Source: a virus (lineage: Duplodnaviria > Caudoviricetes). Taken from it: a DNA stretch of 61,276 nt. Within the stretch, counting starts at the first letter, position 1. Each line of letters begins with the position of its first letter. The stretch covers positions 1 through 61,276 of the IMG/VR virus record IMGVR_UViG_3300024262_000031, one strand, 5' to 3'. Of this stretch, positions 15,480 through 60,965 are shown in pieces. The notes under the pieces are model-generated. The model saw nothing but the letters and a program-made list of their open reading frames with translations. It searched no databases and was not told the DNA's origin. Both the position numbers and the translations under genes were made by a program.

Positions 15480-15494
15480 GTCTAACTCCCTCGA

Positions 15495-27739: not shown

Positions 27740-27789
27740 TACTTGTCTACCGTTACCACTGTTATACTTGTCTACCGTTACCACTGTTA
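27740..27789. repeat. perfect 25-bp tandem duplication at the 3' end of the 1742-aa gene
   Basis: TACTTGTCTACCGTTACCACTGTTA occurs twice in tandem. Confidence 0.9.
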
Positions 27790-45883: not shown

Positions 45884-45912
45884 TTGACATTGTGAAATTT
45901 GTGTGTTATACT
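45884..45912 (+). promoter_or_regulatory. sigma70-type promoter of the HNH gene
   Basis: TTGACA-N17-TATACT followed by AGGAGG. Confidence 0.8.
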
Positions 45913-45931
45913 TAATATAGGAGGTAAACGA

Positions 45932-46444
45932 ATGAAAGAACAGTGGCGAGACGTAGTCGGATATTCGGGATATTATCAGGTCTCGAATCTTGGTCGAGTT
46001 AGATCAGTTGATCGAGTTATAAAACATCAGTATTCTGGTACACTAAGGCTAAAAGGACAAGAACTTCAACAATGTCTTAGAGGTAGTTATCTTGCAGTGG
46101 GCTTATGTAGGGGTGGAATTACACGAACTATTCGCGTTCATCAGCTTGTAGCGACTGCATGGATAAAACCTAACTCCAGTGGTCAAAAAGTTAGACATGG
46201 TGTTAATGGTAAACTAGATAACTCGGTTACTAATCTTTCCTACGGCTCATTGAGTGATAATCAACTCGATAGGCGTCGAGATGGGACACACCGAGGGAAA
46301 CCTGTACGGCGGAGTGATGGGGTTGAATTTATTAACATGCAAGTAGCGGCTGAAGAATCAAATTGTCGTGCTAATAGTATCTGTAGTGTTTGTAAAGGTA
46401 AACATAAAACTACAGGTGGTTATGGTTGGGAATACATTTTATAG
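45932..46444 (+). CDS. NUMOD4-HNH-NUMOD1 homing endonuclease
   Basis: MKEQWRDVVGY..YQVSNLGRVRS, VHQLVA, RH...DNSV.NL; stop overlaps the terL stop. Confidence 0.9.
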   Translation: MKEQWRDVVGYSGYYQVSNLGRVRSVDRVIKHQYSGTLRLKGQELQQCLRGSYLAVGLCRGGITRTIRVHQLVATAWIKPNSSGQKVRHGVNGKLDNSVTNLSYGSLSDNQLDRRRDGTHRGKPVRRSDGVEFINMQVAAEESNCRANSICSVCKGKHKTTGGYGWEYIL

Positions 46445-48106
46445 GAAAGCTTTGATATCTTTGTTCGTTACATAACTAGCTGCTAAGGGGAGAGCTATCT
46501 CAGAATAGCAACGGGCGTGAGCGTAATGATCAGCACCTGTTTCAACGTATTTGGCCACTGGGTTACCCAGTTCATCTCTTTCATACGTTCTTACTATGTT
46601 TTTCAATTGCTCTCGGTACTCCCGACCAATGTCACGAGGTAACATAATTCGTTTGGAACGAAATCGTCCCAAAGCCGCGTCTAACCAATTGGTTCGATCT
46701 ACAGTAGCTATTGAGGCTCCTAGATCATCCTCTTGTATCGAAATCTCTTTCCCTGTCTGTCCGCGTCTGTAACGACATAAAGACACATAACCGCGAAACC
46801 GTCGTGCAAACCGTCGAGCGTCATTGATTTGGGGTTCAGCATCTATCACACAGTGCATGATTTGCCACGTTCTCATAAGCTCGTCGAGTCGCTCAAACTC
46901 GTCACCAGCTATTTTACCCACCCAAAGAACTTTAGCGGTGGCTGCAACATTCAAATCATGTGACATTGTATCAAAGAAATATTCAGTTATTTCTACGTTA
47001 TGCCACAGACCTTGGTCTACCCCCATTACAATTAAACGGTCACTTCCTGTAGGTCTCTGCTCTTCTGAAATATAGTTAGCTAAACATTCATCAAGCATAT
47101 CGTCCGTGATTTGTCCACCTTCTGGGATGTAAGGAATGCCAAGTTTAGAGTTATTAAATTCAACGTTGGCTGCTTCATCTCCTAACCCCCGATGGTAAGC
47201 TTCAACTAATTCGCCGGGATTCACTGTCCGTGAATACATTTGATTCACGTGAAAACTTCTGTGATCCTTACCAGATTCTTCATTTGTGACGTGCCAGTTT
47301 GCCGTGTCTAACCAATCAGCTTTGGTTTCGTGGTCTAGTTTATGTCCACACTCTTTACATTTGAGATAAGAGTCTGCACATCGGGGATCATTTACATCTT
47401 CGCCAAAAATCTCGATACAGTCTGGCCAAGTAAGCTCAGTCCATTTGTTACAGTGCGGGCATTGAAATACCCACTCTTCCATTGTTCCCTTAACGTATAA
47501 TTTGTGTATGCCATATTTTGGAAGGGTCGGTGTGCTGATTGCAAAAATACTTTTGTCCATGTGCCCTGATAGACGTTCCATTGCCCGCCAAATAACTGCT
47601 TGATCCATCTCATCTAATTCGTCGAGAATTAGATATGACACTGGGATGGATTTTAGATTACTGTCGCCACGCGAACCACGAATATACAGTGGTATGGCTC
47701 CCGCTTGTTTCAAACTGATGGTATTAGTATCTGTAAACAATCCAGCAATATACGGTGAGTTCAGACAAGCACCACTGAATCGAGTTTTTGAGAAGTCGGA
47801 TGCATTACCTGCGGTGGGTAAAACGTATAAAACAGCCTTCTTCAACACATCTATTGTGAAAAAGGCTCGATTGATAGCTATCTCGGTTACGCCTAGCTGG
47901 GCTCCCTTCATCACTACATTGGTAGAAGCTTGTGAGTCAGATATCTCTCGACACCAAGGATGATTTGCAAAACTGAATGGTCCTGGAAAGTCTGTTTCTT
48001 CGCCCATGACGCGTCGATAGTTTGCCCACTTTGAACAAGTCGTGATGGTTCTGCTTCGCAAACCTTCTGCAATCGACTGGCGTAATTCGTTTATCAATTC
48101 ATTCAT
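46439..48106 (-). CDS. terL: terminase large subunit (lambda GpA-like)
   Basis: VMKGAQLGVTE (Walker A), LILDELDEM (Walker B), ISTPT, CPHC...CKECG zinc motif, MGVDQG nuclease motif, DHYAHA. Confidence 0.93.
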   Translation of the reverse strand: MNELINELRQSIAEGLRSRTITTCSKWANYRRVMGEETDFPGPFSFANHPWCREISDSQASTNVVMKGAQLGVTEIAINRAFFTIDVLKKAVLYVLPTAGNASDFSKTRFSGACLNSPYIAGLFTDTNTISLKQAGAIPLYIRGSRGDSNLKSIPVSYLILDELDEMDQAVIWRAMERLSGHMDKSIFAISTPTLPKYGIHKLYVKGTMEEWVFQCPHCNKWTELTWPDCIEIFGEDVNDPRCADSYLKCKECGHKLDHETKADWLDTANWHVTNEESGKDHRSFHVNQMYSRTVNPGELVEAYHRGLGDEAANVEFNNSKLGIPYIPEGGQITDDMLDECLANYISEEQRPTGSDRLIVMGVDQGLWHNVEITEYFFDTMSHDLNVAATAKVLWVGKIAGDEFERLDELMRTWQIMHCVIDAEPQINDARRFARRFRGYVSLCRYRRGQTGKEISIQEDDLGASIATVDRTNWLDAALGRFRSKRIMLPRDIGREYREQLKNIVRTYERDELGNPVAKYVETGADHYAHARCYSEIALPLAASYVTNKDIKAFL

Positions 48107-48268: not shown

Positions 48269-48958
48269 TTAGTCTTTGGCCTCCACGTCCGGCTTCGGAG
48301 CCGGTTCAGGGGCCGGTTTAGGTTCAGGTGTCAGTGCCGGTTTTGGATCAGGGTCCGGTTTCCGACGCCGATAAGGTGCAGGGGCCGGTTTAGGGGCCGG
48401 TTTCGGTTCAGGTGTCAGTGCCGGTTTAGGGGCCGGTGGTGCCGGTTTAGGGGCCGGTGGTGCCGGTTTAGGGGCCGGTGGTGCCGGTTTAGGGGCCGGT
48501 GGTGCCGGTTTAGGGGCTGGTGGTGCCGGTTTCGGGGCCAGTGGGGCTGTGCTCTGCTTTGGTTCCACGTGATTTGAAACTCGTGCCGCAATTACCTTCC
48601 CACCGTTTGGCGAAGGTGTTCCCTCTTCATGAACAGAGTCTAAACCTGCTTTAGGAATTGGTTTCTGAGGGCTATAGGGTGGTGAATGGTCCACAATAGA
48701 GGCTGGCTTAGTCTCTACCCTGCGGAAATTTTCAGGTCGGTGACGCTCGGCGTCATACTCGACCCAGTCTTCTTCAAAAGCACGGCTCAACAGAAGTCTA
48801 CTGTTGTGATCGTAAGCATGAAAAGTAATCAAGTCGGGTTTACCTTGCAAATCAATCTCAGCCCGGGGGAGCATTTCAATGCGGTTGGCTCCCTTTGGCT
48901 CATAAATATGCAAACAAATCTTGGCAGTCCCAGGTGGGCATACAGGAAGTCGAAACAT
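48269..48958 (-). CDS. protein with Pro/Lys-rich C-terminal tail (APPAPKP repeats)
   Basis: 21-bp tandem repeats at about 48418-48540. Confidence 0.75.
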   Translation of the reverse strand: MFRLPVCPPGTAKICLHIYEPKGANRIEMLPRAEIDLQGKPDLITFHAYDHNSRLLLSRAFEEDWVEYDAERHRPENFRRVETKPASIVDHSPPYSPQKPIPKAGLDSVHEEGTPSPNGGKVIAARVSNHVEPKQSTAPLAPKPAPPAPKPAPPAPKPAPPAPKPAPPAPKPAPPAPKPALTPEPKPAPKPAPAPYRRRKPDPDPKPALTPEPKPAPEPAPKPDVEAKD

Positions 48959-49500
48959 TAGCTATCCCTCCGATGTCGTTTTTGTTTGGGAATGGGCGGC
49001 TGGTCCAAGAACATAAGCACGGTAAGCAAAAGTCTGAGAATCGTGGGCCAGTTTTCTTTGAACCAAACAAGAACGGCCTGCCAGATAGTTGTCCAATCCA
49101 CATTGGATAGTTCAGCCTTTGGCATCTCGGCTCGAACCTTAGTCTCAAATGCTTGCCATGCGTCATACGGCTGACCGTCGCGCATTCGTACAGGTTTTTT
49201 AATCAAATCTACAATCATCCGATGCTCGGCGGTTGTAATATCACCGTGCCTACGAGCACGTCTAGCGGCCAGTCGAGTCAAAAATTTGAAGTCACGACCC
49301 ATCCGCGTTGGATGATCTTGATACTGGAGGGCGTACTGAAGAAATTCTTCGTCCCCCTCACCTTCCAGTAGAATCTCTTCATCCGTTTGAACTCCCACTT
49401 CCACTTCTGGGACGACTTCATCCTCTATGAGATGCCCACCTCTGGAGTATGGGGTGGATGGAAGTTCGTGTTCGTGTTCGTGTTCACTCATAGTTACCAT
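48958..49500 (-). CDS. hypothetical protein with C-terminal amphipathic/TM segment
   Basis: DWTTIWQAVLVWFKENWPTILRLLLTVLMFL followed by a basic tail. Confidence 0.7.
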   Translation of the reverse strand: MVTMSEHEHEHELPSTPYSRGGHLIEDEVVPEVEVGVQTDEEILLEGEGDEEFLQYALQYQDHPTRMGRDFKFLTRLAARRARRHGDITTAEHRMIVDLIKKPVRMRDGQPYDAWQAFETKVRAEMPKAELSNVDWTTIWQAVLVWFKENWPTILRLLLTVLMFLDQPPIPKQKRHRRDS

Positions 49501-50204
49501 AGCCTATAACTGGGACCGCTTACAAAATCATAGTTTGGACGGTCGGGGTTTGGATTAGGTGTGGGTGGTAGTGGTAGTGGTAGGTCCGGTTGAGGCTTCT
49601 TTAAGTATTTCAAAATCTCAGACCTCGTAGTGGACCCAAAACGTTGAATCATTTCTCCGCCCTCAAAAATCATTATCGTTGGGTACGAAGAAACATTGTA
49701 TTGGTTGACGAGGGTGGTATTATATTTGTTGTGGGCTACATGAATTTCATATCCTTCAGCTTCTAAAGCTTCTATGATGGGATACATGCTTTTGCAAGGT
49801 TGACACCCATCCATAGTGAAGAAAATCAAGTATTCCGACGACGTATTCGGGATCGAAACCTTTTTCGCCCATCTTCGGGGGAATCTTGGTCCTGCTCCTT
49901 TGATATCCTCTTCCGTCTTCGTCTTCGATATTGGCTCTCTGGCCCAGTCGAGTCCGTCTCGTCCCAAGTCTCCCGTGGAGTTGAGTCCGTCGTATTCCTG
50001 GAGTCGAGCGGCGGTGCGCCTGAATGATCCAAGTAAGCGTCCCCTATCTCGGAAACCTTCGTCACTGTCTCTGGTACGTTGATCTTCTGACCGGACTTTA
50101 TACTTCTCCAGAGACCCCAGAGAAATCCAATCACTTTCCGCATGAGCTTGAACATAAGTCGGTCCCATTACTAAAAGTAGGACAATTGTTGCTAGTAATC
50201 GCAT
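49494..50204 (-). CDS. exported thioredoxin-fold protein
   Basis: N-terminal signal peptide; FTMDGCQPCK (CxxC) and cis-Pro motif YNVSSYPT. Confidence 0.85.
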   Translation of the reverse strand: MRLLATIVLLLVMGPTYVQAHAESDWISLGSLEKYKVRSEDQRTRDSDEGFRDRGRLLGSFRRTAARLQEYDGLNSTGDLGRDGLDWAREPISKTKTEEDIKGAGPRFPRRWAKKVSIPNTSSEYLIFFTMDGCQPCKSMYPIIEALEAEGYEIHVAHNKYNTTLVNQYNVSSYPTIMIFEGGEMIQRFGSTTRSEILKYLKKPQPDLPLPLPPTPNPNPDRPNYDFVSGPSYRLW

Positions 50205-50225
50205 TTGTTTCCCCTCGTGCCCCTG

Positions 50226-52262
50226 TTACCAAAAGCGGTAATCTATATCAAGCCGTGGGTACCCAATGTAGGCACTCATAGCTATACTGTCACCTTGTCT
50301 TAAACCACGGTCAATAACGCTAGCATCTGCCCAAAAAGAACCTTCAGGTTGATCGTGTCGTTTTGGGCCATATGTCCAATTAGAATTACCAGCCCAAACT
50401 GCTCTACCATTTCGTCGCACATAAATAACTTGATTCGGGACTGTGACACAAAATACCTCGCCTCGATAAGGTAGTAATATTGGCTTATAGGCTATATGTT
50501 GCTCTAAAGCTTTTACTTTAATTCCAACTCGGTATTCAATGTGTCGAGTAATTCCGCCTGTTCCATTATCGCGTCCACGTCGATCTGTGTACGAAATATC
50601 TCCAGCAAGTCCACAATGTAACAACAGACGTTGAAAATCATCAGCTAATCGTTTAGACGATGTGTAATAAGTCCTCTTGATACCCGTTAAGCCGGGACTA
50701 ATTGATCCATCACCTAGCATCAAAGCATCATACAATATTCTCAATTGGCGAGCCGAACATTCCCATACATAATCAGGAATATATTTTTCATGGGCTTTAC
50801 CAAAAGATTTTAACTCAGCTAATAAATCTCTACTAGTTTGATTTAGAAAGTGAGTATCATAGTTACAAAACTTAAAAGGTAATTGTTCTATGCAAGCTTG
50901 AATAATAGCATAGTTTTCTTTGTTTGTTTGACAAACTCCAACCCCTCTTTTGATACCATTTTTTACAACATCTCTAACACCAGGGGTATATGATTGATTT
51001 TCAGTGGTATAACCCTCTGACAAAAAGTAGCCAAGAAATTCTAACCACAAGTCCATTGGAATTTCAGCATCCCCTATTTGATGAGTTTCTTTGTCAGGTC
51101 GTGAATTATTTGCATCCTTTTTCATTTTAATAGTTTGAATGCACTCATCGGCCCGTGTTAAAAACCAATCATCCGTTTTTGCTGTTTTAGCAACATATAA
51201 ATTATGGTTAGGTGTAATAGCTAAATCAATATCTCTGGATTTATGATGCCATAGATAATCGTTATAAGGATAACGATGATAGCAAGTTGGCGCTTGATAC
51301 TCAAGTTCATGTGTTTCTTGATTCAAAGTAGCTACTTTCTCAGACTCATTTAAGTCTTTGAAAAGCTTCCAACCCTCATTAGTAAGAATCTCGGTTTGCT
51401 CGTCATAGCATCCCCAACTGTTAATAATAAGTCCGCCCGGACGTTTATATTGGTCGTCTATCCCGGCAATAAGCATACAATGCATCCATGGGCGTCGTCC
51501 AGGAGTCAAGAATCCATCTCTATCTCGCCCACCCCGAGTCTTGAAGCCCACGCTGCTACACATCGCAACGGGGTGACCGTTTGCTATCGAATCACGGCAT
51601 TCATCCCATGATCGGCATAGCGAGACAGTCTTCACCGGGTGTAACCGGCACAAAGGTTCTAGGGGGTCGGGAACTCCCGTTCGTCCCAGTGTGCGAGCCA
51701 CCTGGCCTGAATATTCAGTGTAGTCGTATTTACCACCGAGATACCGTTTACGATGTAATACGCCCCACTTATTGATGAATTCTCCAGCCCAAGTCCCCAT
51801 TGAGCCATCGCCTCGGATTGTACCACCACCGGCTTCTATTCGACTCCCCGCGTAGAGAATCTCAGTAGCAACTTTGGCAACCCAACGCTCAGTTTTACCG
51901 GGCATGAGCATCTGAACGGCTGATAAAAGGTCTATACCGAGACCAAAACCATGCGAGACGCAATCACCAATTTCTTGTAGATGAGGAACCAACGGATTCT
52001 GGGTTACTTCCTCGAAGTACTTCCAGAGTAAGGTAACTTTACCCTTTCCAGACTCTCGAATCTCTTGATTTTGTTGCGAGAGGAATGGTTTCTGGTGGCT
52101 CTGGACCCATGTAGTCCTGGATATTTCATCATTAACCCAGCCAGCCTGTAACGGAAGGCGCGAATCGTCTCTGGCTTGTACCCATGGGGGTGTCCAGAGT
52201 CCACTACCAGCCGCTAACCCAGCTACACTGAGTCCCTGTTTTAAGAAGTCACGCCTTCGCAT
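50226..52262 (-). CDS. Tat-exported papain-family (C1-like) cysteine peptidase with an intein
   Basis: MRRRDFLK Tat signal; Q..GDCV catalytic Cys; HCMLIAG His; INSWG...W Asn motif; GSFW. Confidence 0.85.
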   Translation of the reverse strand: MRRRDFLKQGLSVAGLAAGSGLWTPPWVQARDDSRLPLQAGWVNDEISRTTWVQSHQKPFLSQQNQEIRESGKGKVTLLWKYFEEVTQNPLVPHLQEIGDCVSHGFGLGIDLLSAVQMLMPGKTERWVAKVATEILYAGSRIEAGGGTIRGDGSMGTWAGEFINKWGVLHRKRYLGGKYDYTEYSGQVARTLGRTGVPDPLEPLCRLHPVKTVSLCRSWDECRDSIANGHPVAMCSSVGFKTRGGRDRDGFLTPGRRPWMHCMLIAGIDDQYKRPGGLIINSWGCYDEQTEILTNEGWKLFKDLNESEKVATLNQETHELEYQAPTCYHRYPYNDYLWHHKSRDIDLAITPNHNLYVAKTAKTDDWFLTRADECIQTIKMKKDANNSRPDKETHQIGDAEIPMDLWLEFLGYFLSEGYTTENQSYTPGVRDVVKNGIKRGVGVCQTNKENYAIIQACIEQLPFKFCNYDTHFLNQTSRDLLAELKSFGKAHEKYIPDYVWECSARQLRILYDALMLGDGSISPGLTGIKRTYYTSSKRLADDFQRLLLHCGLAGDISYTDRRGRDNGTGGITRHIEYRVGIKVKALEQHIAYKPILLPYRGEVFCVTVPNQVIYVRRNGRAVWAGNSNWTYGPKRHDQPEGSFWADASVIDRGLRQGDSIAMSAYIGYPRLDIDYRFW
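50385..51410 (-). mobile_element. intein with LAGLIDADG endonuclease (342 aa)
   Basis: Starts CYDEQTEILT; block B ITPNH; LGYFLSEG and ALMLGDGS; ends VFCVTVPN..IYVRRNGRAVWAGN, followed by Ser+1. Confidence 0.92.
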
Positions 52263-52276
52263 ACAGTCCTCACTTT

Positions 52277-53128
52277 CTACCGGGCTGCAAAATATCTCAG
52301 ACCCTTAGCTATTTCTTTCCACGCCTCAGAGTGTTGGTCTGGACTTACCAGCTTACCATCATCGGCTCTAGCTTCTAACTCAGCTTGAAGGCCACGCAAA
52401 AATGGAATCCAAACTTGCAGCCTGTCCCCCAACGCCCCTTTATTTGCATCGGTTGTAGACTGAATAATATCATACGCAGTGGTCAAGACGCCAGCGTCTA
52501 TTTGAGACGCCACACTTTCAAAACCATTGGCCAACTGACGTGCCTCAGCACTTCGAGTTGGGGATTGTATTTGTCCGCACCATCCGTTGACTTGCTTAGC
52601 AAGTTCGGAAGTCAGGACACTGGGTCCGGGTAGTGGTGGTGTGATAGGATCGGGAGGTTCAACGGGGCCGGGTGGTGCAATGCCTAAGACGCGCACAACG
52701 TGACGTTTAACGTCAACGGTGTCAGCAGCAGCACCGGCGATAATGAACATGAATTCCCCAGGTACGCCAGAACTAAAGACCGCTCGTCGCCCGTCGTCAA
52801 TGACTAAGAAGTCCTCTGTTTCTGGAACAACCAACCACTTGAACGTTACCGCTGTGGATTCAGATACATCCAAAACTACCAGCTTACCAAGTTTGACTTC
52901 CTTCGGGGCTGAAACAACTACTACAGCTTCTCCACCCGCTTGAATGTCTGTTAAGCCTTGATAAACTGCTGTCTTTGGTACTAGCTCTTGGCCATAAAGT
53001 TGCGACCCTACGTTCCCTGGCAGGCTTATATAGCTGCCAACACTGAAAAAACCAACCACTGCAATTACAATTACAATGAAGCTAGCAATTCCCGTGAGTA
53101 ACCACTTTCTTTTTCTGTTAAAATTCAT
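52277..53128 (-). CDS. membrane-anchored protein (TM, Ig/PKD-like domain, Pro linker, helical domain)
   Basis: KRKWLLTGIASFIVIVIAVVGFF TM; beta-rich domain; PPGPVEPPDPITPPLPGP linker. Confidence 0.75.
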   Translation of the reverse strand: MNFNRKRKWLLTGIASFIVIVIAVVGFFSVGSYISLPGNVGSQLYGQELVPKTAVYQGLTDIQAGGEAVVVVSAPKEVKLGKLVVLDVSESTAVTFKWLVVPETEDFLVIDDGRRAVFSSGVPGEFMFIIAGAAADTVDVKRHVVRVLGIAPPGPVEPPDPITPPLPGPSVLTSELAKQVNGWCGQIQSPTRSAEARQLANGFESVASQIDAGVLTTAYDIIQSTTDANKGALGDRLQVWIPFLRGLQAELEARADDGKLVSPDQHSEAWKEIAKGLRYFAAR

Positions 53129-53154
53129 CTTTTCCCCCGCAAGATATTCTAGCC

Positions 53155-53328
53155 TTACAGTACTAAGTACTTATAGGCTTCAATCGGCCACGCAAAACAA
53201 TATACGATTTCATTGAGTGTTAGATTTCCATCATAGCTCATGGCATGCCCGGCTAGTACCAATACGACTGCCCCGCCAAGCCAAAATCCCGACCCAAAAA
53301 TAAGCCCCCGCGTCAATAGCTTCAACAT
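53155..53328 (-). CDS. small membrane protein
   Basis: 57 aa, hydrophobic; GAGGGG RBS. Confidence 0.6.
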   Translation of the reverse strand: MLKLLTRGLIFGSGFWLGGAVVLVLAGHAMSYDGNLTLNEIVYCFAWPIEAYKYLVL

Positions 53329-53365
53329 TGTATTTCCCCTCATCCACCCCTAAAATACCCATGTG

Positions 53366-53396
53366 GCGGACGGTCTGGGGCAAGACCGCCCGCCAG
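53366..53396. terminator. GC-rich hairpin, putative terminator or processing site
   Basis: GGCGGACGGTCT...AGACCGCCCGCC. Confidence 0.5.
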
Positions 53397-53417
53397 CCTA
53401 CATAGCCCTTCCAGGGC

Positions 53418-53585
53418 TTATTCGCTCTCCGGTTGCTCTGGTTGCTCCAGTTGCTCCAGTTGCTCCAGTTGCTCCGGGGGTCCAAGAGGCTTTCGCCTTT
53501 TTCGTCCCGAGCCTCTTTTGAACTTAATTTTCTGTCGTCTAGGCGGTTTAGGCTGCTCAGGCGATTCGGGTTTTTGCTCATCCAT
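53418..53585 (-). CDS. small disordered protein (55 aa, MDEQKPESPEQPKPPRRQKIKFKRG...EQLEQLEQLEQPEQPESE)
   Basis: Read manually; AAGGGA RBS; 9-bp repeats GAGCAACTG; ends before the hairpin. Confidence 0.6.
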   Translation of the reverse strand: MDEQKPESPEQPKPPRRQKIKFKRGSGRKRRKPLGPPEQLEQLEQLEQPEQPESE

Positions 53586-53608
53586 TATAGTTAGTCCCTT
53601 TACTGGGG

Positions 53609-53785
53609 TTATCGTCGGGGTTTCTTGGGTTGACCAGTCGGATTCCAGATTTCTGGACCAGCCGGTTTCTTTACAGTTTCACCGGGTGACTTAACAACAT
53701 CGCTACCAGGTCCAGGTGACTTTGCACCGACTGGCGGATACTGAGATTTGTCGCCCGCAGGCAGATTTCCAAATGTTTTTGTCAT
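53609..53785 (-). CDS. small Pro/Gly/Lys-rich protein (58 aa, MTKTFGNLPAGDKSQYPP...)
   Basis: Read manually; starts 5 nt after the previous stop. Confidence 0.55.
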   Translation of the reverse strand: MTKTFGNLPAGDKSQYPPVGAKSPGPGSDVVKSPGETVKKPAGPEIWNPTGQPKKPRR

Positions 53786-53790
53786 AGTTG

Positions 53791-54021
53791 TTACCCAATC
53801 TTCTTCCAGGTAGCAAACCGCAGTATGGTGTTGACTAAACCTTGGGCTGCGATTAACCCAGCGATGAGTGTCGCATTGTCTGCAATTAGGTCATGTCCAG
53901 CGACGTAGCCGATAATACCGGCAACAAGCGTGAGGCCATTAACCCAAATTATCTTTGATTGCCAAAAGGGCTTTGCTTCCACAGGGGTATCAGCCTTGGG
54001 AGCAAGATCATAATCAGCCAT
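53791..54021 (-). CDS. holin-like two-TM protein
   Basis: KPFWQSKIIWVN.L...A and G.VN.ILRF.T pattern, 76 aa; AGGAGG RBS. Confidence 0.7.
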   Translation of the reverse strand: MADYDLAPKADTPVEAKPFWQSKIIWVNGLTLVAGIIGYVAGHDLIADNATLIAGLIAAQGLVNTILRFATWKKIG

Positions 54022-54043
54022 ATTTATACCCTCCTAATGAGGT

Positions 54044-54739
54044 TTACGTGAAATCGTAAGTGTCAATTGCTGCGGGACCAACCTCGTCACCAATCGGGTA
54101 ACGTAGATTCGGGGTTCTCATCCATCCCTGTGGTCCGTAGCGAGTTACTTTTGAGGTTCCGTGCCAGTACAGATTTCCGAAAGGAGTCACCAAGTAATCA
54201 TTGGGTTTGTTACCATCTGGGACTTCCTTGCCGTCGTAGTATACATGACCTTCGTGGTGGTATTTATCTCTCGGTGGCACAAGATGCTCAACATAGTATT
54301 TCCAGGCACCGTCTTCAAAGGTGCGGGAAATATCTATTCCGTAGACGGCCTTTGTAGATATAAGCTCGTCCGGAATTGTCAGTTCTTTACCAACGGGGCC
54401 GCTAACAGCCGCGAATTGCCAGCCCGCATCACCTTGCCAAAAACACTTGCCCCAAGGGGTAGTATAGAAGTCATTGATATCTTTAGCTATCAGACAACTA
54501 TTCTTGTAGCAAAGTACGCCCATGCTGTCTTTATAAACAGACCAATGCCAACCGTCCTTCTCCATTGGTATGGGTGAGGCATCAGTTGGCACAGGTATAG
54601 ACACGTCAACAGTGGGTTGATTTGGTTGGGCGGGATTTTCGACGACGCTACTACCGTCAGTCAGTTGTAGATTCACTGACAGAAGAATAGCGATAGAAAA
54701 TGTAATGACCAGCAGAAATACGTCTTTAAGCCTGTTCAT
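54044..54739 (-). CDS. exported or TM-anchored protein with two internal repeats
   Basis: N-terminal hydrophobic helix; repeats DG.W...ND...TP(W/F)G...W.G...GW....P.G.E. Confidence 0.7.
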   Translation of the reverse strand: MNRLKDVFLLVITFSIAILLSVNLQLTDGSSVVENPAQPNQPTVDVSIPVPTDASPIPMEKDGWHWSVYKDSMGVLCYKNSCLIAKDINDFYTTPWGKCFWQGDAGWQFAAVSGPVGKELTIPDELISTKAVYGIDISRTFEDGAWKYYVEHLVPPRDKYHHEGHVYYDGKEVPDGNKPNDYLVTPFGNLYWHGTSKVTRYGPQGWMRTPNLRYPIGDEVGPAAIDTYDFT

Positions 54740-54968
54740 TGTTTCCGTCTTTTATGGTTCGGAGTAGGTGTTGTTCAATTTTAGCTTTTAACATGTTGAC
54801 TGTTCCAAGACAAGCAAAGGGCTCGCCACGAAACAGATAAGATACGTTCTCGCGTTTAAGTTCTGAGCCTTTATCAAGCAAGCCTATCATTGCGAATACA
54901 TCAAATCGTTTTTTAAGAGCATCTAAAAGCTCTTTGGTTGGAACAATGTCTAATTCTTCAGGATTCAT
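54726..54968 (-). CDS. hypothetical protein
   Basis: 80-aa ORF coupled to both neighbours. Confidence 0.65.
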   Translation of the reverse strand: MNPEELDIVPTKELLDALKKRFDVFAMIGLLDKGSELKRENVSYLFRGEPFACLGTVNMLKAKIEQHLLRTIKDGNNEQA

Positions 54969-54969
54969 A

Positions 54970-55512
54970 CTAATCGTCGCCTTGATCTTTCCCAGCCGTA
55001 AGGATGGCTGAGACTATTCGGTCACTGATCTTGTCAATTATGATATCACTGTCGTCGATATCTTCTAGTTCTTCTATGATAATCTCTATAATCTCGCGGC
55101 CCAGGGCCACTATAGAAGACTTAGAGAGTAACGTACCGAGATTACGTTCTACCAGATTACAAGCTTTAACCAGGCGTTCTACTGTGAGAAGAAGAGAATT
55201 AAGCGTGCCACAAGCAGCGAGTAATTCGCCATCACCTGCAATCATATTGAATCGACTCTCGATTAACATTCTAGCGAATGCAATCTCTTCCCGAAGCGAC
55301 TTGACATCCTCGTGGTCACTTAGGGTAGCGAGACGGCCAGAATAGCGCGCATCAGTCAGCAAATAGTGACGCATTTTAGCAGCCTCAACGCGACCCTCAG
55401 CACGATAGTCATGCCCTGCACAATACAGGGAGCCTTCGACTCGCTCTTGGGTACATTGAGCCTTGTCACTTACATGCTGGCAGCGTTTGTCGGGGTCTGC
55501 TATTCGTGGCAT
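54970..55512 (-). CDS. probable terminase small subunit
   Basis: First gene of the late operon; C-x8-C-x10-C-x2-H N-terminus and SLREEIAFAR helix as in HGGxSTG-type terS-like proteins. Confidence 0.55.
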   Translation of the reverse strand: MPRIADPDKRCQHVSDKAQCTQERVEGSLYCAGHDYRAEGRVEAAKMRHYLLTDARYSGRLATLSDHEDVKSLREEIAFARMLIESRFNMIAGDGELLAACGTLNSLLLTVERLVKACNLVERNLGTLLSKSSIVALGREIIEIIIEELEDIDDSDIIIDKISDRIVSAILTAGKDQGDD

Positions 55513-55570
55513 GGCGTTACTGGGGGTTAGGTGTTAGTCCTATAGAGGGGTTAGTATTATCCCTTTTTCC

Positions 55571-55640
55571 CCTCTATCTATTCCTATCGCTAAAATTAGC
55601 GCAAACCGATAGAAAATTGCATTTGGGAACTAGATTCTAG
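55571..55640 (-). promoter_or_regulatory. conserved 70-bp element, copy 4 (head of the late operon)
   Basis: CTAGAATCTAGTTCCCAAATGCAATTTTCTATCG-N17-CGATAGGAATAGATAGAGG on the minus strand, 58 nt upstream of ATG 55512. Confidence 0.8.
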
Positions 55641-55763
55641 AAAATAATTACCATCAGCCCTAGTAAGTGTATATTTGTACACCATATCAACTCGCGAAAA
55701 CTAGAAAATTATCGCCCCAAAGTGATAATTTTCTAAAAATGGAGGGATTTTGTGCTAAAAGAC

Positions 55764-55930: not shown

Positions 55931-56419
55931 ATGAATCGCATTCAAGCCTTCGGACAAACATACAGGTCGATTAAATCTCTCGCTCGTGATCCGCGATGCG
56001 TTGTGGACTATTATACGCTCTGGCGACGGATTCGATTTTATGGTTGGGACATAACCGAGGCGGCTACGACCATGGAAGATGAATCCTGGTATGTTGTATG
56101 GGGAGAGAAATTTCCAACACTGAATGACTTGTTAGCTGATTCACGGTGTATGGTTGGAAACCATAGGACGTTAAGCAAACGGATTAAACGTGGTGTCCCG
56201 ATTCAAGATGCAGTTTTAGAACGACCGACCGCAGACTTGAAATTTGAGGTTTGGGGAGAACAATTTGCCAACCTAACAGAGGTTAGTCGCGATTCACGGT
56301 GTGTACCACAATACAAGACGCTAATGTATCGTCTACAAGCTGGCACCCCACTAGAAATAGCTGTGCAAGACAAACAGGTCTTTTTGGACTGGCGGCGAGG
56401 GGATTTATGCGAACATTAG
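55931..56419 (+). CDS. protein with three tandem HTH/NUMOD-like DNA-binding repeats
   Basis: Three copies of (A/V)(F/W)G..(Y/F).....D.RC....TL..R...G.....A; the upstream extension in the ORF track overlaps two promoters. Confidence 0.7.
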
Positions 56420-57696
56420 TTATTGTGGGCGCCTCTGGCGACCTTACACGTAGGAAACTGATTCCTGCGTTGTACAATCTCTGGCTCAGCAAGTCTCTCA
56501 AGGATTTTCGTATCATTGGGACAGCAATTCATGAATTCACCGACGAAGAGTGGGTAGCACACCTCGCGGACGGGCAAGATACCGGTGGTAAGTGGCAGCA
56601 GTTCTCCGAGTTGCTCTCATACGCCCCTGGTGACGCCCTGAAGGGCGAGTTGCCAGAGGGAGACATATACTACCTTGCACTACCGCCCGACTTGTTTGGC
56701 CCCGTAGCGGCCCGTATCAAGCATCCCTGCAAGCTGATAGTCGAAAAGCCATTTGGGACGGACCTGGGAACGGCTCAAGACTTGAACGAGATGCTACATG
56801 AGTGTTTTGACGAGGACGATATTTACCGAATAGACCATTACTTAGGCAAAGAGCCCGTTCAGAACCTACTGGTCTTTCGTTTCGCAAATGCTCTCTTTGA
56901 GCCCGTTTGGAATCGAAACTTCATAGACCACGTCCAGATTACGGCTGCGGAGACACTCGGAGTGGGTGCTAGGGGACAATTTTATGAACAAGCTGGCGTG
57001 CTCCGAGATGTTGTACAAAACCACCTCCTACAACTATTGGCCCTCGTGGCTATGGAGGCCCCGGCCGGGTTAAACGACATTTGTGGTGAGAAGCTAAAGG
57101 TTCTGCGGACAGTTCCGACTCTTTGGGAATCGGATTGTAAGAATACCCTGCAAGCTCAGTATGACTCTTATCGTGATACGCCAGGTGTATCCGCTAACTC
57201 ACAGACAGCCACCTTTTGTTGTGTTAAGTTAACGGTTAACAACTGGCGGTGGACTGGCGTGCCCTTTTATCTTAGGGCTGGGAAGATGCTGGCTGACAAG
57301 ACGACTCGAATCGTGATTCAGTTCAAGTCGATACCCCATCAGGTGTTCGGAACTGCTACACCTAACAGATTAGTTATCAAAATTGATCCAGAAGAAAGTA
57401 TCCGGTTACATTTTACAGCCAAGGTACCCGGGTGGGGCGCTGTTGCTGAGAAAAATCTACTGTTTCAGTATAACGAAGACCTTCCCAATGCCTATCAGAC
57501 TCTCTTACGGGACATTTTTGACGGGACTCAGAGCCTTTTTACTCGTGCAGACGAGGTTGAGGAATGTTGGCGGATAATTGACCCGATTCAGCAGTATTGG
57601 GACGACGCGGCCCCGCTGTACCGCTACGAGCCAGGAACATGGGGACCGGCGGCTGCGGATGAATGGCTAGCCAAGGAAGGGAGATGCTGGTGGTAA
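56407..57696 (+). CDS. zwf: glucose-6-phosphate 1-dehydrogenase
   Basis: [65 protein letters not shown]. Confidence 0.97.
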
Positions 57697-58202
57697 CGGA
57701 AAGATGGCGAAAGGTTATAGGTTATGAGGAATCCTATGAAGTTTCTAGTCTTGGTAAAGTGAGGTCAGTGGATAGGATTCTACCACACTCGCGGTATGGT
57801 ACTTGGAAATTGAATGGGCGAATTTTACACACTATATTATCTGGTGGATATCTTGCAGTAAATTTATCGAAAGAAGGAACTTCACGATATATCCGGATTC
57901 ATCGGCTTGTAGCGGCTGCATGGATTGGACCGTGTCCAGAGGGTCAACAGGTTAGACATGGTCCTAACGGTAAGCTAGATAATTCCATTTCTAACCTTTG
58001 CTATGGTACGCCTAGTGAAGATGGTCTTGATAAGCGTAGGGATGGAACGCATATTGGCAAAGCTGTGCGTCGTAGTGATGGTGTCGAATTTATCAGTATG
58101 ACCGTCGCTGCTGAAGAAACAGGTTGTGGGCGTGTGTGTGTATCTGGGCTGTTTGTAACGGGCGTCAAAAAACAGCCGGTGGTTATGGCTGGGAATACGT
58201 AA
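57684..58202 (+). CDS. NUMOD4-HNH endonuclease with a frameshifted C-terminus
   Basis: Close paralog of 45932..46444; the NUMOD1 tail [16 protein letters not shown] is in another frame after (GT)5 at 58132-58141. Confidence 0.85.
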
Positions 58203-58214
58203 CGGAGAAATCGA

Positions 58215-59156
58215 ATGTGTGATATTTTAGTAGCCGGTGGCGCGGGCTTTTTGGGTTCGCATTTGTGTCGTCGTTTGGTCGCTGAGGGCAACCGAGTCAC
58301 GTGCATCGACAATCTTCAGACTGGTCGCAAAGAGAATGTGGCTGACCTTATTGGCACGCCAGCTTTTCGCTTCTTTAGAGCGGACGTGAAGGACATGGCA
58401 CGGTTGCGACGTTTGAATGACGGCTATGATAAAATTTTCAATTTGGCGTGCCCAGCTTCACCCCCAGCATATCAAAAAGACCCTATCAACACGATGCTGA
58501 CCAACGTTGTTGGGACCGAGAATCTGCTTCACATAGCTGCCATCTCGAAAGCGAGATTCTTGCAAGCCTCAACAAGCGAAGTGTACGGATGCCCAGAAAA
58601 GCACCCACAGAACGAAGAATATCGGGGCAATGTCAATCCGGTCGGTGTGCGGAGTTGCTACGACGAGGGCAAACGGGCTGCTGAGACGCTGTGTATGGAT
58701 TATCGACGCAAACATGGCACAGATGCGAAGATTGTACGTATTTTCAATTGCTATGGCCCCGGGATGCGTCCTGATGATGGCCGGGTAGTCTCGAACTTTA
58801 TTATGCAAGCCCTCAAAGACGAACCCATCACTCTGTACGGCGACGGAATGCAGACCCGTTCCTTCTGCTACGTTGACGATATGATTGATGGCCTCATTAA
58901 GATGATGAACTCAAGTCTGGCGGGACCGGTGAATCTTGGTAATCCCAATGAGTTTGATATGCACCATCTCGCCGGTATAATTTGTGGTCTCATAACTAGT
59001 ACCTCACGGTATGTCTATGAAGACTTGCCAGAAGATGACCCCAGGGTACGCTGCCCAGATATTACACTAGCTCGTACTCTCTTAGGTTGGGAGCCCCGGG
59101 TCGAACTTCGTGAGGGCCTAAAGAAAACGATAGCTTATTTCAAAGGACTGATGTAA
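58215..59156 (+). CDS. UDP-glucuronate decarboxylase (UDP-xylose synthase; extended SDR)
   Basis: [63 protein letters not shown]. Confidence 0.92.
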
Positions 59157-59434
59157 TGTATTTTTACGTAGACTTTCATGCGGACGGAGGACAAGCGTGT
59201 GTACCCGGTCGTCGTCGTTTCGATGACCTTGAGGAAGCTGAAGAATTTTCGCTCTTAATGTCAGCAGAACCGGGTCATATTTGTAAGAATGATGTACGAT
59301 TCTTTGAGAGTGAACGTCGCCTAAATGAATACGGAACGATTGCTTTGAATCCGACGTTCCCACCCAGTGGTAGCCAAGCACATTTTAACGACTGCTTAAA
59401 TTTTACGACTAATGAACCCGAAGCTGTGGAATAA
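59156..59434 (+). CDS. hypothetical protein
   Basis: TAATG stop/start coupling with the previous gene. Confidence 0.6.
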   Translation: MYFYVDFHADGGQACVPGRRRFDDLEEAEEFSLLMSAEPGHICKNDVRFFESERRLNEYGTIALNPTFPPSGSQAHFNDCLNFTTNEPEAVE

Positions 59435-59879
59435 TATCCGATTTTGCAAACAACGGGACTGTTTTTCATGCGGTCCTATGGCCCTGCTAAATGCGGACAA
59501 GTTTTTCGGTAGGGATATTACCTATCGGCACCTTCCAGCTTACCAAAAGATGGTACACTGTGCGCCGAAGCATGGTACATACACAAGCGACATGTCAAAC
59601 GTCTTAGGGCGGGCGAGTCGTAGGTCTTGGAAAACAACGAAGAAATTTCTACACGGACATTGCTTGATTATTCAAACCGGAGATGGTAAGCGTGGCCGCA
59701 AGGGACACTACTCACTGATTTGTATGGATCGACAGGGGGACTACTTTCTAGTGAATCATTACAAGGCCGCTTACGCTGCGGTAGCAGTGAGTTGGCAAAA
59801 GGTATACTGGCTTTGGCGAAAAGCCCACAGGGTTTGGTATGTAAACGAACCCATTTTGGAGACGAACGATGAAGCTTAG
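59412..59879 (+). CDS. C39-like cysteine peptidase
   Basis: Q....SCGP.AL.N, GT...M, GHY, and LVN arrangement of a papain-like triad. Confidence 0.65.
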   Translation: MNPKLWNNIRFCKQRDCFSCGPMALLNADKFFGRDITYRHLPAYQKMVHCAPKHGTYTSDMSNVLGRASRRSWKTTKKFLHGHCLIIQTGDGKRGRKGHYSLICMDRQGDYFLVNHYKAAYAAVAVSWQKVYWLWRKAHRVWYVNEPILETNDEA

Positions 59880-60210: not shown

Positions 60211-60454
60211 ATACACCGTGGTAATAGAATGTCCCGACATGATTCAAGACAAATTTGCGATTGGTTGTACTATCGGACGGCTAATTGACAACAATAATTG
60301 GCAAGTCCTTAAAACGTACCGGGACGGTAAAGTTACGATTACAGTGCTTGGATTTTCAAATTGGGAGGGGGCTAAGAAAGCCTGCGACTTGATGGATGAA
60401 GAGGGTATCGCGGGGTTGACAGTCTATAGCGAAGAGGTCATAAAAAGTCTATGA
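60203..60454 (+). CDS. hypothetical protein
   Basis: GAGG RBS before ATG 60203. Confidence 0.6.
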   Translation: MIRYTVVIECPDMIQDKFAIGCTIGRLIDNNNWQVLKTYRDGKVTITVLGFSNWEGAKKACDLMDEEGIAGLTVYSEEVIKSL

Positions 60455-60861
60455 AGTCCTTACCTATACTCACTGAAGCTCAAGTGCGGAAGTTTTTGGC
60501 AAGGGTCCAAAGTGGCCGTCCTCAAGATTGTTGGGAATGGCAAGGTCGTACCTCTCCGAAGGGTTACGGACGATTTAGTATCAAAAACAACGAGTGCCTA
60601 GCTCATCGTGTAGCCTTCTTCCTGCATAACGAAGTTGATCCTCAAGATAGCATCGTTAGACAAACGTGTAAGAATAAAAAGTGTTGCAATCCCTCCCACC
60701 TTCGACTCGATGAGGCAACTAAATTAGGCCCCTTGCAAATTCGATACATTCGAGGACAGGCAGCTAAGGGAGTGTCATCACGAACTTTAGCGAAGCAGTA
60801 TAGTGTGGCGAAATCAACAATTCAGAATATCATAACCAACGCGACTTGGAAGAACGTTTAG
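60451..60861 (+). CDS. degenerate zinc-binding HNH endonuclease with C-terminal HTH
   Basis: DCWEWQG...GYG...AHRVAF...CCNPSHL; HTH SSRTLAKQYSVAKSTIQNI; the usual His is replaced (VRQTC). Confidence 0.75.
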   Translation: MKSLPILTEAQVRKFLARVQSGRPQDCWEWQGRTSPKGYGRFSIKNNECLAHRVAFFLHNEVDPQDSIVRQTCKNKKCCNPSHLRLDEATKLGPLQIRYIRGQAAKGVSSRTLAKQYSVAKSTIQNIITNATWKNV

Positions 60862-60945
60862 GGGAGGTGGCCGAGTCTGGCTTATGGCCCTGGTTTTGAA
60901 AACCAGTGTGGGCAACCACCGGGGGTTCAAATCCCTCCCTCCCCG
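60861..60945 (+). tRNA. tRNA-Ser(TGA)
   Basis: Acceptor GGGGAGG/CCTCCCC with G discriminator; anticodon stem CTGGT/ACCAG with loop TTTGAAA; long variable arm; GGGGG-TTCAAAT-CCCTC T-arm; CCA not encoded. Confidence 0.93.
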
Positions 60946-60965
60946 CTCGACTAGAAAGGTAAGAC

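Follow-up and report, generated by a model that had tools for sequence, protein, structure and literature searches.

A papain-fold protease, thioredoxin and membrane-anchored partner encoded next to terL: a candidate envelope-breaching module of phages with Planctomycetota-like hosts

Between a terS-like gene and terL, the phage DNA analyzed here (the window, 61,276 nucleotides, a contig of about half a genome) carries a module of five genes. On sequence comparisons, its conserved core consists of a holin-like protein, a membrane-anchored protein with PKD/Ig-like and helical domains (TM-PKD), a papain-fold (C1) protease, a thioredoxin, and a small C-terminally hydrophobic protein. We tentatively propose that this core is an envelope-breaching egress module of a clade of Planctomycetota phages of ~100 to 180 kb, which would reduce and cleave a protein-rich, disulfide-linked wall.

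An ORF listing identified 11 co-oriented minus-strand ORFs filling positions 48269-54968 between the terS-like gene and terL, in agreement with the count of about 11 genes given in an earlier note on this DNA. The operon and its boundaries are as follows.

54970..55512, minus strand: terS-like gene, 180 aa, first gene of the minus-strand late operon
54726..54968, minus strand: 80-aa ORF, variable filler; no family matches, no relatives in 80 loci
54044..54739, minus strand: 231-aa ORF, variable filler with an N-terminal hydrophobic anchor or signal (residues 6-24, KD 2.27); no family match (Pfam, PHROGs), no relative in 80 loci
53791..54021, minus strand: holin-like small membrane protein, 76 aa, conserved
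53609..53785, minus strand: Pro/Lys-rich ORF, 58 aa, variable (19% Pro, 14% Lys); no relatives in 80 loci
53231..53585, minus strand: repeat-bearing ORF(s), frame ambiguous; no relatives in 80 loci
53155..53343, minus strand: single-TM ORF, 62 aa, variable (hydrophobic segment 13-31, KD 1.99); no relatives in 80 loci
52277..53128, minus strand: membrane-anchored TM-PKD/Ig-helical partner, 283 aa (AF2 model and fold matches)
50226..52262, minus strand: papain-fold protease ORF, 678 aa including an intein
51411..52262, minus strand: protease N-extein, aa 1-284, with Tat signal, pro-region-like segment, catalytic Gln/Cys/His and NSWG
50385..51410, minus strand: intein, aa 285-626 (342 aa), with a LAGLIDADG homing-endonuclease domain
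50226..50384, minus strand: protease C-extein, aa 627-678 and stop codon, ending in DYRFW
49494..50204, minus strand: thioredoxin-fold protein, 236 aa, with signal-like N terminus and CQPC, ending in SYRLW
48958..49500, minus strand: conserved small protein, 180 aa, with basic helical N-domain and hydrophobic C terminus
48269..48958, minus strand: Pro/Lys-rich repeat protein, 229 aa, variable (25% Pro); no relatives detected in 80 loci
46439..48106, minus strand: terL, large terminase, downstream boundary (GpA_ATPase 3.9e-31; phrog_675 7.3e-93)

The product of 54970-55512, whose gene adjoins the divergent intergenic region 55513-55666, gave no match in Pfam, PHROG or NCBIfam; it is a terS candidate only by its position and by its conservation, 20 of the 80 viral loci having a relative of it upstream of the module. 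In the repeat region, frames of 116 aa (53231-53581) and 55 aa (53418-53585) are both open, and a 9-bp tandem repeat (5.4 copies) occupies 53427-53475. A 21-bp repeat (6 copies, 48418-48544) lies in the gene of the 229-aa Pro/Lys-rich protein.

The 11 genes had previously been described as one cassette; this does not hold, since six of them are without relatives in the 80 loci and five are conserved. The three genes expected to stay together across phage contigs did so: the thioredoxin gene lies downstream of the protease gene in 67/80 viral loci, and the TM-PKD (TM-Ig) gene is directly upstream in 55/80. The small C-terminally hydrophobic protein is encoded between thioredoxin and terL in 55 loci as well, and 26 carry a member of the holin-like family. 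A variable island separates the first operon gene from the module; in the relative G006 its content is different. All but one of the five core products are predicted to be membrane bound or exported. Two genome contexts, unrelated to each other, harbor the module. In the second phage group its neighbors are genes for RNR, dUTPase and PhoH instead of late genes, and signal-less proteases occur there within a parallel cassette that encodes small TM proteins. Auxiliary genes, including those for G6PD, sugar-nucleotide enzymes and a sulfotransferase, are common in these phages.

The structural model of the window protease (AF2, pLDDT 91) shows a true papain (C1) fold with an intact catalytic Gln-Cys-His-Asn set. 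The model matched xylellain (3OIS; Foldseek E 3e-10; VIA Z 22.8, rmsd 3.1 over 245 residues) and procathepsins (VIA Z 19-21). In these alignments zymogens are matched from model residues ~1-30 on, and mature enzymes from ~60-75 onward only. Across 55 aligned protease sequences Gln98 and Cys103 never vary, and conservation of His263 and of Asn283-Ser-Trp-Gly is at least 90%; in 48 aligned rows comprising the intein-less reference P0001 and genome copies, Cys and His are each retained in 47 and Asn and Gln in 43. In sequence searches, PF00112 (Pfam Peptidase_C1) did not match at E 0.01, the sole weak Pfam match was to Peptidase_C39_2 (17.8 bits versus a cut-off of 24), and a search against PDB sequences reached E of about 0.13 at best, to cathepsins. 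In a related atlas cluster, PF00112 is present on 44% of the members. The family defined here is large, with 1249 representatives at 50% identity, and is without a Pfam model.

The N terminus of the protease, MRRRDFLK, scored 17.9 bits with the Tat model TIGR01409 (cut-off 16.7), and P0001 scored 18.4 bits. With S/T-R-R-x-F-L-K followed by a hydrophobic stretch as the Tat criterion, 47 of the 80 viral proteases carry the RRxFL motif, and these 47 group together in a single clade (support 100/100). The papain fold, the conserved catalytic residues and the above-cut-off Tat score uphold the proposal of a Tat-signal papain-family protease.

Directly after the NSWG motif, the protease is interrupted by a 342-aa LAGLIDADG intein (LAGLIDADG_3, Pfam, 3.7e-7), for which Hint-type matches to PHROG and NCBIfam models that contain inteins were also obtained. 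The insertion is clean, with extein alignments to P0001 that run from end to end: the N-extein is 87% identical to it and the C-extein aligns to its residues 287-338. The element has the features of a class 1 intein, namely, Cys at position 1 (Cys285), a C-terminal Asn (Asn626), a +1 nucleophile (Ser627) and precise insertion. The penultimate His is absent, Gly standing in its place (...WAGN); some active inteins lack this His. Inteins of the protease family occupy all three catalytic sites, a pattern that argues for strong selection on the enzyme in these phages. The family represents a new class of host protein for inteins, its insertions falling at all three catalytic sites.

The thioredoxin was identified by PF00085 (40 bits versus a cut-off of 23.5, E 4.3e-10) and phrog_22 (2.6e-11). 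It has the motif CQPC and a hydrophobic N-terminal segment (residues 3-21), and CxxC is found in 67 of 68 family members. The description of this protein as periplasmic stands in part: the window protein has a signal-like N terminus, but 22 of the 68 relatives are short and without a signal, so that "periplasmic" fails for part of the family. A reductant in the periplasm would also depend on a source of electrons, and no donor was identified. Protease and thioredoxin have a C-terminal tag in common, Y-x-hydrophobic-W (DYRFW and SYRLW, respectively), an unexplained feature of two co-encoded proteins brought out by this work.

The 283-aa partner is laid out as a TM helix, a disordered linker, a PKD/Ig-like sandwich, a Pro-rich linker and a four-helix bundle, with domain boundaries resolved in the AF2 model (pLDDT 84.6). 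A chagasin-type (I42) Ig-fold inhibitor of C1 peptidases was weighed as a candidate identity; fold searches returned generic PKD/Ig domains (Foldseek E 2e-4; VIA Z about 10), and chagasin was not among the matches listed. The 76-aa protein has two hydrophobic segments (24-42, KD 1.78; 52-70, KD 1.57) and matched the "holin" phrog_34682 weakly (E 1.4e-3). Since holin PHROGs matched 2 of 24 family members (best 2e-5), support for its identity as a holin is weak. The small protein is longer in the window (180 aa) than in relatives (about 100 aa), its C-terminal segment 152-170 is only weakly hydrophobic there (KD 1.21), and it gave no Pfam, PHROG, NCBIfam or atlas lead.

No peptidoglycan-hydrolase family was found among 60 window ORFs with Pfam and PHROGs, and none of 12 cassette proteins matched a lysozyme, amidase, transglycosylase, M15, M23, CHAP or NlpC/P60 family (Pfam, PHROGs, NCBIfam). 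As the contig is about half a genome, the absence of an endolysin from the window alone says little. The earlier note had held that a canonical endolysin/spanin set elsewhere in the genome would speak against a protease-based system; Pfam revealed no canonical peptidoglycan-hydrolase family in four complete or near-complete relatives, covering 109 ORFs of G006, 81 of 87 eligible ORFs of G010, 63 of 68 eligible ORFs of G007, and, of the 197 ORFs called in G011, the 127 of 110 to 900 aa. PHROGs likewise revealed none in 90 of the 109 G006 ORFs, and six-frame searches with PF00959, PF01510, PF01464 and PF13539 each gave matches in 0 of 5 complete genomes. These screens covered ORFs from 100-110 aa upward, with an upper bound of 900 aa in G011, and detect described lysin families only.

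Three independent lines pointed to a Planctomycetota-like host, as had been surmised. Genome copies of the protease belong to Planctomycetota in 42 of 54 loci, all five organism-named G6PD relatives among the best 120 are Planctomycetota, and DUF1571 and DUF1501 are present in complete relatives. The genome copies sit in ordinary cellular contexts, mostly as a non-prophage TM-PKD/protease pair (TM-PKD directly upstream of the protease in 33/54 loci); the phage-like ORFs within ~8 kb are the protease alone, sometimes with TM-PKD. Their location mostly outside prophages argues that the ancestral role was not lysis; because TM-PKD and protease also exist as a cellular pair, the module is not lysis specific by descent. 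The planctomycete wall is described as "dominated by proteins," with Cys-rich YTV proteins, in an account that also mentions detection of peptidoglycan components (PMC12673574). Given these components, the protease alone may not suffice for lysis.

The fold, catalytic residues, signals, intein, synteny, host signal and lack of known lysin families are the observations on which we build the proposed route of egress. The protease precursor would fold and splice out its intein in the cytoplasm, and the Tat pathway would export the folded enzyme; in the second phage group, a signal-less protease would be released via holin lesions instead. The protease may be associated with the membrane-anchored PKD/helical partner in a zymogen-like form. 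Late in infection, protease and CxxC thioredoxin would reduce and cleave a Cys-rich, disulfide-linked protein wall, the protease thereby replacing a peptidoglycan endolysin. Substrate, timing, redox role and partner contacts are what we infer in this scheme. The phage genes may descend from, or share ancestry with, the cellular Planctomycetota TM-PKD/protease pair, which could be the host's own wall-remodeling enzyme. Endolysin families are known to mix signal-bearing and signal-less forms, and the same mix in the protease family was counted in favor of egress. Counted against it were the position of the second-group module beside RNR, dUTPase and PhoH, the short signal-less thioredoxins, and the weak holin support. 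C1-family enzymes are, to our knowledge, not known as murein hydrolases. A bolder version, which we hold to be doubtful, is that Planctomycetota phages lyse without any peptidoglycan endolysin, using a reduce-and-cleave protease and thioredoxin that are placed by the TM-PKD partner and were taken from the host wall-remodeling pair, with the short, signal-less thioredoxins co-exported with the Tat protease via the Y-x-hydrophobic-W tag.

The exported protease could also remodel the envelope without lysis, by trimming host surface proteins (receptor, crateriform-structure proteins, pili) to block superinfection or prevent trapping of progeny on debris, with the thioredoxin and TM-PKD protein tuning or localizing it. 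We think this unlikely: export by Tat before lysis, cellular homologues in non-lytic contexts, a second-group module among early or metabolic genes, and the common use of PKD domains as substrate- or surface-binding modules would all fit, but it accounts neither for the missing known lysins in four (near-)complete genomes nor for signal-less proteases amid small TM proteins or the holin-like neighbor. Somewhat less probable again is a new family of true endolysins that cuts planctomycete peptidoglycan stems or cross-links, the thioredoxin only keeping the catalytic Cys reduced. CHAP and NlpC/P60 are members of the same clan as the protease, and the papain-like clan is described as including peptidoglycan peptidases and phage lysins (PMC10318531). 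The reported planctomycete peptidoglycan components, the failure of our screens to detect another lysin, and the existence of both signal-bearing and signal-less protease forms point the same way. However, the closest structures are C1 proteinases with a pro-region-like N terminus rather than CHAP or NlpC/P60, PF05257 and PF00877 did not match at E 0.01 (Pfam), and no cell-wall-binding domain was recognized.

It seems improbable that the module is unrelated to the wall, serving nutrient release, protein turnover or processing of exported phage or host proteins, and lies near terL by accident of a variable insertion hot spot. The variable island upstream of it, with six window ORFs lacking relatives and a different content in G006, and the many auxiliary genes of these phages are compatible with such an origin. 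This would leave unexplained a core order kept in at least 55 of 80 loci and paralleled in the second phage group, the intein insertions at the three catalytic sites, which suggest a gene the phage cannot lose, and the predicted membrane or exported location of most core products.

Among known systems, C1 peptidases (xylellain, Lpg2622, procathepsins B/L/K) share the fold (Z 22.8 and 19-21), the Gln-Cys-His-Asn set and the "NSWG" motif, and their zymogen pro-regions align with the N terminus of the phage protease, which differs in its Tat signal, inteins, TM-PKD and thioredoxin partners, and a score below the Pfam Peptidase_C1 threshold (E 0.01). Cwp84 (Z 17.4 to our model, VIA) is likewise a bacterial C1-fold protease acting on a cell-surface S-layer protein; as described, it is a Gram-positive S-layer maturation enzyme with cell-wall-binding repeats, neither phage borne nor provided with a thioredoxin partner or a lytic role. 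Signal-peptide/SAR endolysins are exported ahead of the trigger for lysis and kept in an inactive state, and P1 Lyz has a disulfide-caged catalytic Cys under thiol/disulfide control. The proposed pre-lysis export and thiol chemistry, and signal-bearing and signal-less forms in one family, resemble these systems, which are Sec-exported muramidases, unlike a Tat-signal C1 protease with a separate thioredoxin gene. Mycobacteriophage LysB, an esterase for a non-murein envelope layer, is a precedent for phage enzymes matched to unusual host envelopes. It works beside the canonical endolysin LysA, whereas no canonical endolysin was found in the window or in the four (near-)complete relatives screened. 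PeiW and PeiP are virus-encoded cysteine peptidases reported to lyse methanogen hosts with a non-murein wall (PMC4592898, PMC2989375), an activity only proposed for the phage protease. By description, they are a separate family that cuts a defined pseudomurein isopeptide bond rather than wall proteins, without Tat signal, thioredoxin or PKD partner.

The protease family gave no match in the GenBank phage collection, and no cultured planctomycete phage is known to carry it. Should the module prove lytic, bacterial hosts would have their first example of a phage lysin that is protease based and redox assisted; the module would also hint at the enzymes with which planctomycetes remodel their own Cys-rich protein wall, and could provide tools for opening and genetically manipulating cells that are hard to lyse. 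The bolder version, with reduce-and-cleave lysis and co-export through the Y-x-hydrophobic-W tag, would, if true, add a new phage lysis enzyme class and a new kind of Tat co-export signal. Independently of function, the analysis defines a large protease family, an intein host class and a shared C-terminal tag.

The record of 61,276 bp represents the entire assembly, and no exact terminal repeat was found in it. A long minus-strand operon heads leftwards from a divergent intergenic region near 55.6 kb and is arranged as follows:

54970-55512, minus strand: 'terS-like' gene, first gene of the operon
48269-54968, minus strand: eleven ORFs between the 'terS-like' gene and terL, including those for a holin-like protein (53791-54021), a TM-PKD protein (52277-53128), a papain-fold protease (50226-52262), a thioredoxin (49494-50204) and a small C-terminally hydrophobic protein (48958-49500)
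46439-48106, minus strand: terL (GpA_ATPase, 3.9e-31)
45899-46444, plus strand: HNH/NUMOD4 homing-endonuclease gene between portal and terL, which are neighbours in relatives
further along from terL, beyond this endonuclease gene: portal, P22-type coat and scaffold, tape measure and tail genes

The 'terS-like' gene matched no family in Pfam, PHROGs or NCBIfam, and its label reflects position only. The terL product shares at most 27% identity with those of Thermus phages among the GenBank phages. Scans for promoters (18 sites versus 15.5 expected) and terminators (8 versus 9.6 expected) gave numbers not above chance. The eleven ORFs agree with their description in the earlier note, namely hydrophobic segments, found in the 231-, 76-, 62- and 283-aa proteins and at the N terminus of the thioredoxin, a Pro/Lys-rich repeat protein (229 aa, 25% Pro, with a 21-bp repeat in six copies), and a thioredoxin with a CQPC motif.

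The proposal that these eleven genes form a single cassette gave way to a different picture when we counted their relatives, by BLAST and with iterated profiles, in the 80 viral loci retained for study. A thioredoxin gene lies downstream of the protease gene in 67 of the 80 loci, the TM-PKD gene lies immediately upstream in 55, and a C-terminally hydrophobic protein of approximately 100 aa is encoded between thioredoxin and terL, also in 55. The genes for terL and portal are present in 56 and 51 loci, respectively, the holin-like gene in 26 and the 'terS-like' gene in 20. As none of the 80 loci contains a relative of the window ORFs of 80, 231, 58, 116, 62 and 229 aa, the stretch consists of a conserved core and a variable island. 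In the complete relative G006, other cargo separates the first operon gene from the protease module (L135:16901 to L136:4872), including two DUF6923/tachylectin-like repeat proteins, which also identifies the site as a variable island. The protease of a second phage group lacks a signal, and the cassette reads small proteins with one or two TM segments, an N-anchored or lipoprotein-like protein, protease, thioredoxin bearing a signal or TM segment, a protein of approximately 95 aa, and a protein that has a TM segment at its C terminus. It adjoins glycosyltransferase, RNR, dUTPase and PhoH genes rather than the terminase gene.

We then analyzed the proteins of the core, whose main features are these:

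protease, aa 1-284 of 678: N-extein
protease, Cys285 to Asn626 (342 aa; window 50385-51410): intein with a LAGLIDADG domain (3.7e-7)
protease, aa 627-678: C-extein, first residue Ser
protease C terminus, 50229-50243: tag DYRFW
thioredoxin C terminus, 49497-49511: tag SYRLW
TM-PKD, residues 6-27: TM helix, followed by a disordered linker
TM-PKD, residues 70-148: PKD/Ig-like sandwich, followed by a Pro-rich linker
TM-PKD, residues 175-282: four-helix bundle

The exteins match the intein-less relative P0001 (338 aa) end to end with 87% identity, and the insertion is thus clean, directly after the NSWG motif. The N terminus of the protease, MRRRDFLK, scores above the cut-off of a curated Tat-signal model (17.9 versus 16.7 bits). 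Across 55 aligned relatives, Gln98 and Cys103 (P0001 numbering) do not vary, and conservation is 90% or higher for His263 and Asn283-Ser-Trp-Gly. An AF2 model of P0001 (pLDDT 91) resembles xylellain (Foldseek E 3e-10; VIA Z 22.8, rmsd 3.1 over 245 residues), procathepsins (Z 19-21) and Cwp84 (Z 17.4). Alignments with zymogen structures begin in the first ~30 residues of the model, those with mature enzymes only at ~60-75, which suggests that the N-terminal segment of the modeled protein is pro-region-like. The protein did not match PF00112, and the best profile hit reached only E 0.13 (cathepsin K); by sequence, the family is barely recognizable. A weak match to Peptidase_C39_2 (E 5e-3, under the cut-off) was set aside in favor of the C1 fold. 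A prohead-protease role was rejected because of the Tat signal, the P22-type coat and scaffold of the window phage, and the separate Clp-type protease of G011, a near-complete member of the second group.

The 283-aa TM-PKD protein was modeled with a pLDDT of 84.6, and structural neighbours were found for its sandwich only, i.e., PKD domains of collagenase and AAVR (Foldseek E 2e-4, VIA Z ~10). As a chagasin-like inhibitor it gained no backing from fold searches, which returned generic PKD/Ig domains only and took in the helical bundle only together with other parts of the protein. No fusion of TM-PKD or thioredoxin with the protease occurs among 266 family proteins examined. The window thioredoxin matches PF00085 with 40 bits, and 67 of the 68 members of its family have a CxxC motif. 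The family comprises a long form with signals or anchors and a short form of 86-107 aa starting directly at the fold. For the 180-aa C-terminally hydrophobic protein, a protein atlas gave a top score of 0.80 and no lead.

Protease and thioredoxin have in common a C-terminal tag, Y-x-hydrophobic-aromatic. Of 80 proteases, 45 carry it, each encoded in a locus that also has the small C-terminally hydrophobic protein; among the thioredoxins, it is found on 18 of 22 short forms but just 7 of 46 long forms. In the 80 loci, no other module family bears it, and among ORFs of at least 60 aa its strict form is restricted to these two proteins. The tag matched no known signal.

Of 1330 candidates from a word-indexed search, 275 were protease relatives (E 1e-3 or better), most of them 326-352 aa long and without a Pfam domain; an exhaustive search returned 1249 representatives at E 1e-3, with 172 at E 1e-30 or better. 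On viral contigs, 557 of 599 pattern matches were protease relatives; no record in the GenBank phage collection matched the protease. None of the papers found on planctomycete phage endolysins or Tat papain-like phage proteins treats this family, and a papain-superfamily survey (PMC10318531) does not mention Planctomycetes, thioredoxin, intein or xylellain. Relative to P0001, long members are interrupted at three sites: ~103, at the catalytic Cys; 263-265, at the catalytic His; and 286, after Asn-Ser-Trp-Gly, the site occupied in the window. Two inteins are present in each of three proteins (P0139, P0141 and P0165). The family proteins P0121-P0265 and window 50385-51410 mark the family as an intein hot spot, and an exported Tat substrate is an unusual host for an intein. 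When 104 proteases were placed in a careful maximum-likelihood tree, the phage forms with a Tat signal made up a single clade (46 rows, support 100/100) within signal-less viral forms.

Relatives of the protease are also encoded in cellular genomes. Contigs sampled at one genome per species yielded 54 such loci, 42 of which are Planctomycetota according to record labels, mostly Gemmataceae and Pirellulales. In 33 of the 54, the protease gene is immediately preceded by the TM-PKD gene. The thioredoxin, small C-terminally hydrophobic protein, holin-like and 'terS-like' genes occur only on L081, a contig that resembles a phage, and none of the loci has terL, portal or coat genes. At almost every one of these loci, the overlap with the phage gene pool within ~8 kb is limited to the protease, in some cases together with TM-PKD. 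The contexts sampled were cellular, with, for example, DUF1501/PSD1/PSCyt genes on the Limnoglobus roseus chromosome and glycosyltransferase genes in Mucilaginibacter. The genome copies retain the catalytic Cys and His (47 of 48 aligned rows) and nearly all lack the tag (present in 1 of 54). Six TM-PKD/protease pairs are on MAG contigs labelled Bacteroidales, Alcaligenaceae, Saccharibacteria or Sphingorhabdus (L093, L096, L097, L098, L109 and L122); all but L109, which is not among the rows listed, nest inside the Gemmataceae clade of the tree. These six are probably mis-binned planctomycete contigs. The data point to a Planctomycetota host for the phage, to which two further lines are added by the window G6PD, whose organism-named relatives within the best 120 matches are all Planctomycetota (5 of 5, 47-49% identity), and by the planctomycete-typical DUF1571 (8e-73) and DUF1501 encoded by complete relatives.

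Completeness is rated at 39-62% for relatives of 48-67 kb and at 100% for those of 104-178 kb; the window, whose genes are collinear with three complete relatives, is about half a genome. We therefore screened complete relatives for lysins. Pfam searches covered 109 ORFs of at least 100 aa without window homologues in G006, 81 of 87 eligible ORFs in G010 and 63 of 68 in G007 (those omitted being at most 113 aa), and, in G011 (98% complete), 127 ORFs of 110-900 aa among 197 called. No lysozyme, amidase, transglycosylase, M15, M23, CHAP or NlpC/P60 domain was detected in these four at E 1e-3. PHROGs gave no lysis family at E 1e-5 for 90 of the 109 G006 ORFs, six-frame searches with PF00959, PF01510, PF01464 and PF13539 were each negative in five complete genomes and positive in control genomes, and no peptidoglycan-hydrolase family was found among 60 window ORFs. 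The screen addresses known families and covers short ORFs, very long G011 ORFs and ORFs at piece borders incompletely. Within these bounds, a canonical endolysin was found neither in the window, in keeping with the earlier note, nor in the four relatives. One candidate at 5639-6271 (phrog_2252 and phrog_5033, both 'endolysin; inhibits RNA polymerase') was dismissed, its matches stemming from a dGTP diphosphohydrolase domain.

What might the module do? The planctomycete wall seemed protein-dominated, and cysteine-rich YTV proteins are present; peptidoglycan components have since been found in planctomycetes (both according to a recent review, PMC12673574). The best fit to the data, though we put it at slightly under an even chance, is a putative egress module that would reduce and cleave a host protein wall, because the C1 protease is conserved, intein-targeted, and exported or holin-adjacent, because a thioredoxin and a membrane partner are tightly linked to it, and because no other lysin was found in phages of a Planctomycetota host. 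The main weaknesses of the egress proposal are the cellular, non-lytic ancestry of the TM-PKD/protease pair, the presence of peptidoglycan in the hosts, a neighbourhood in the second phage group that does not consist of late genes, thioredoxins without a signal, and weak support for a holin (2 of 24 family members). That the module remodels the cell surface or destroys a receptor is rather unlikely, and a somewhat smaller chance still goes to the protease being a new peptidoglycan endopeptidase. A role unrelated to the wall we consider improbable.

The window also encodes the following:

17751-19019, 57663-58202 and 60451-60861, plus strand: further free-standing HNH/NUMOD4 genes
56299-57696: G6PD (1.9e-102)
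58215-59156: NAD-dependent sugar-nucleotide epimerase/dehydratase
12050-12778: sulfotransferase
8300-8857: SPFH/Band-7 protein
36380-41980: giant virion-region ORF, 1866 aa, no family match
27762-32990: giant virion-region ORF, 1742 aa, C-terminal Laminin_G_3 domain only
14424-17617: three tandem paralogues of ~350 aa, phrog_2448 (unknown function), weak concanavalin-like lectin signals
60861-60946, plus strand: tRNA-Ser(UGA), the sole tRNA gene

With four homing-endonuclease genes, one of them a tandem double HNH, and an intein, this genome is rich in selfish elements. A 155-aa ORF (59412-59879, plus strand) has an N-terminal Cys motif that looks C39-peptidase-like by eye, without support from Pfam, PHROG or NCBIfam. 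The four relatives G006, G010, G007 and G011 also encode Ro60/TROVE, RNA ligase, peptide-chain-release-factor-like, SET-domain, Lipase_3, Trypsin_2 and Peptidase_M28 genes, and in G011, sugar-nucleotide and glycosyltransferase genes form a large block.
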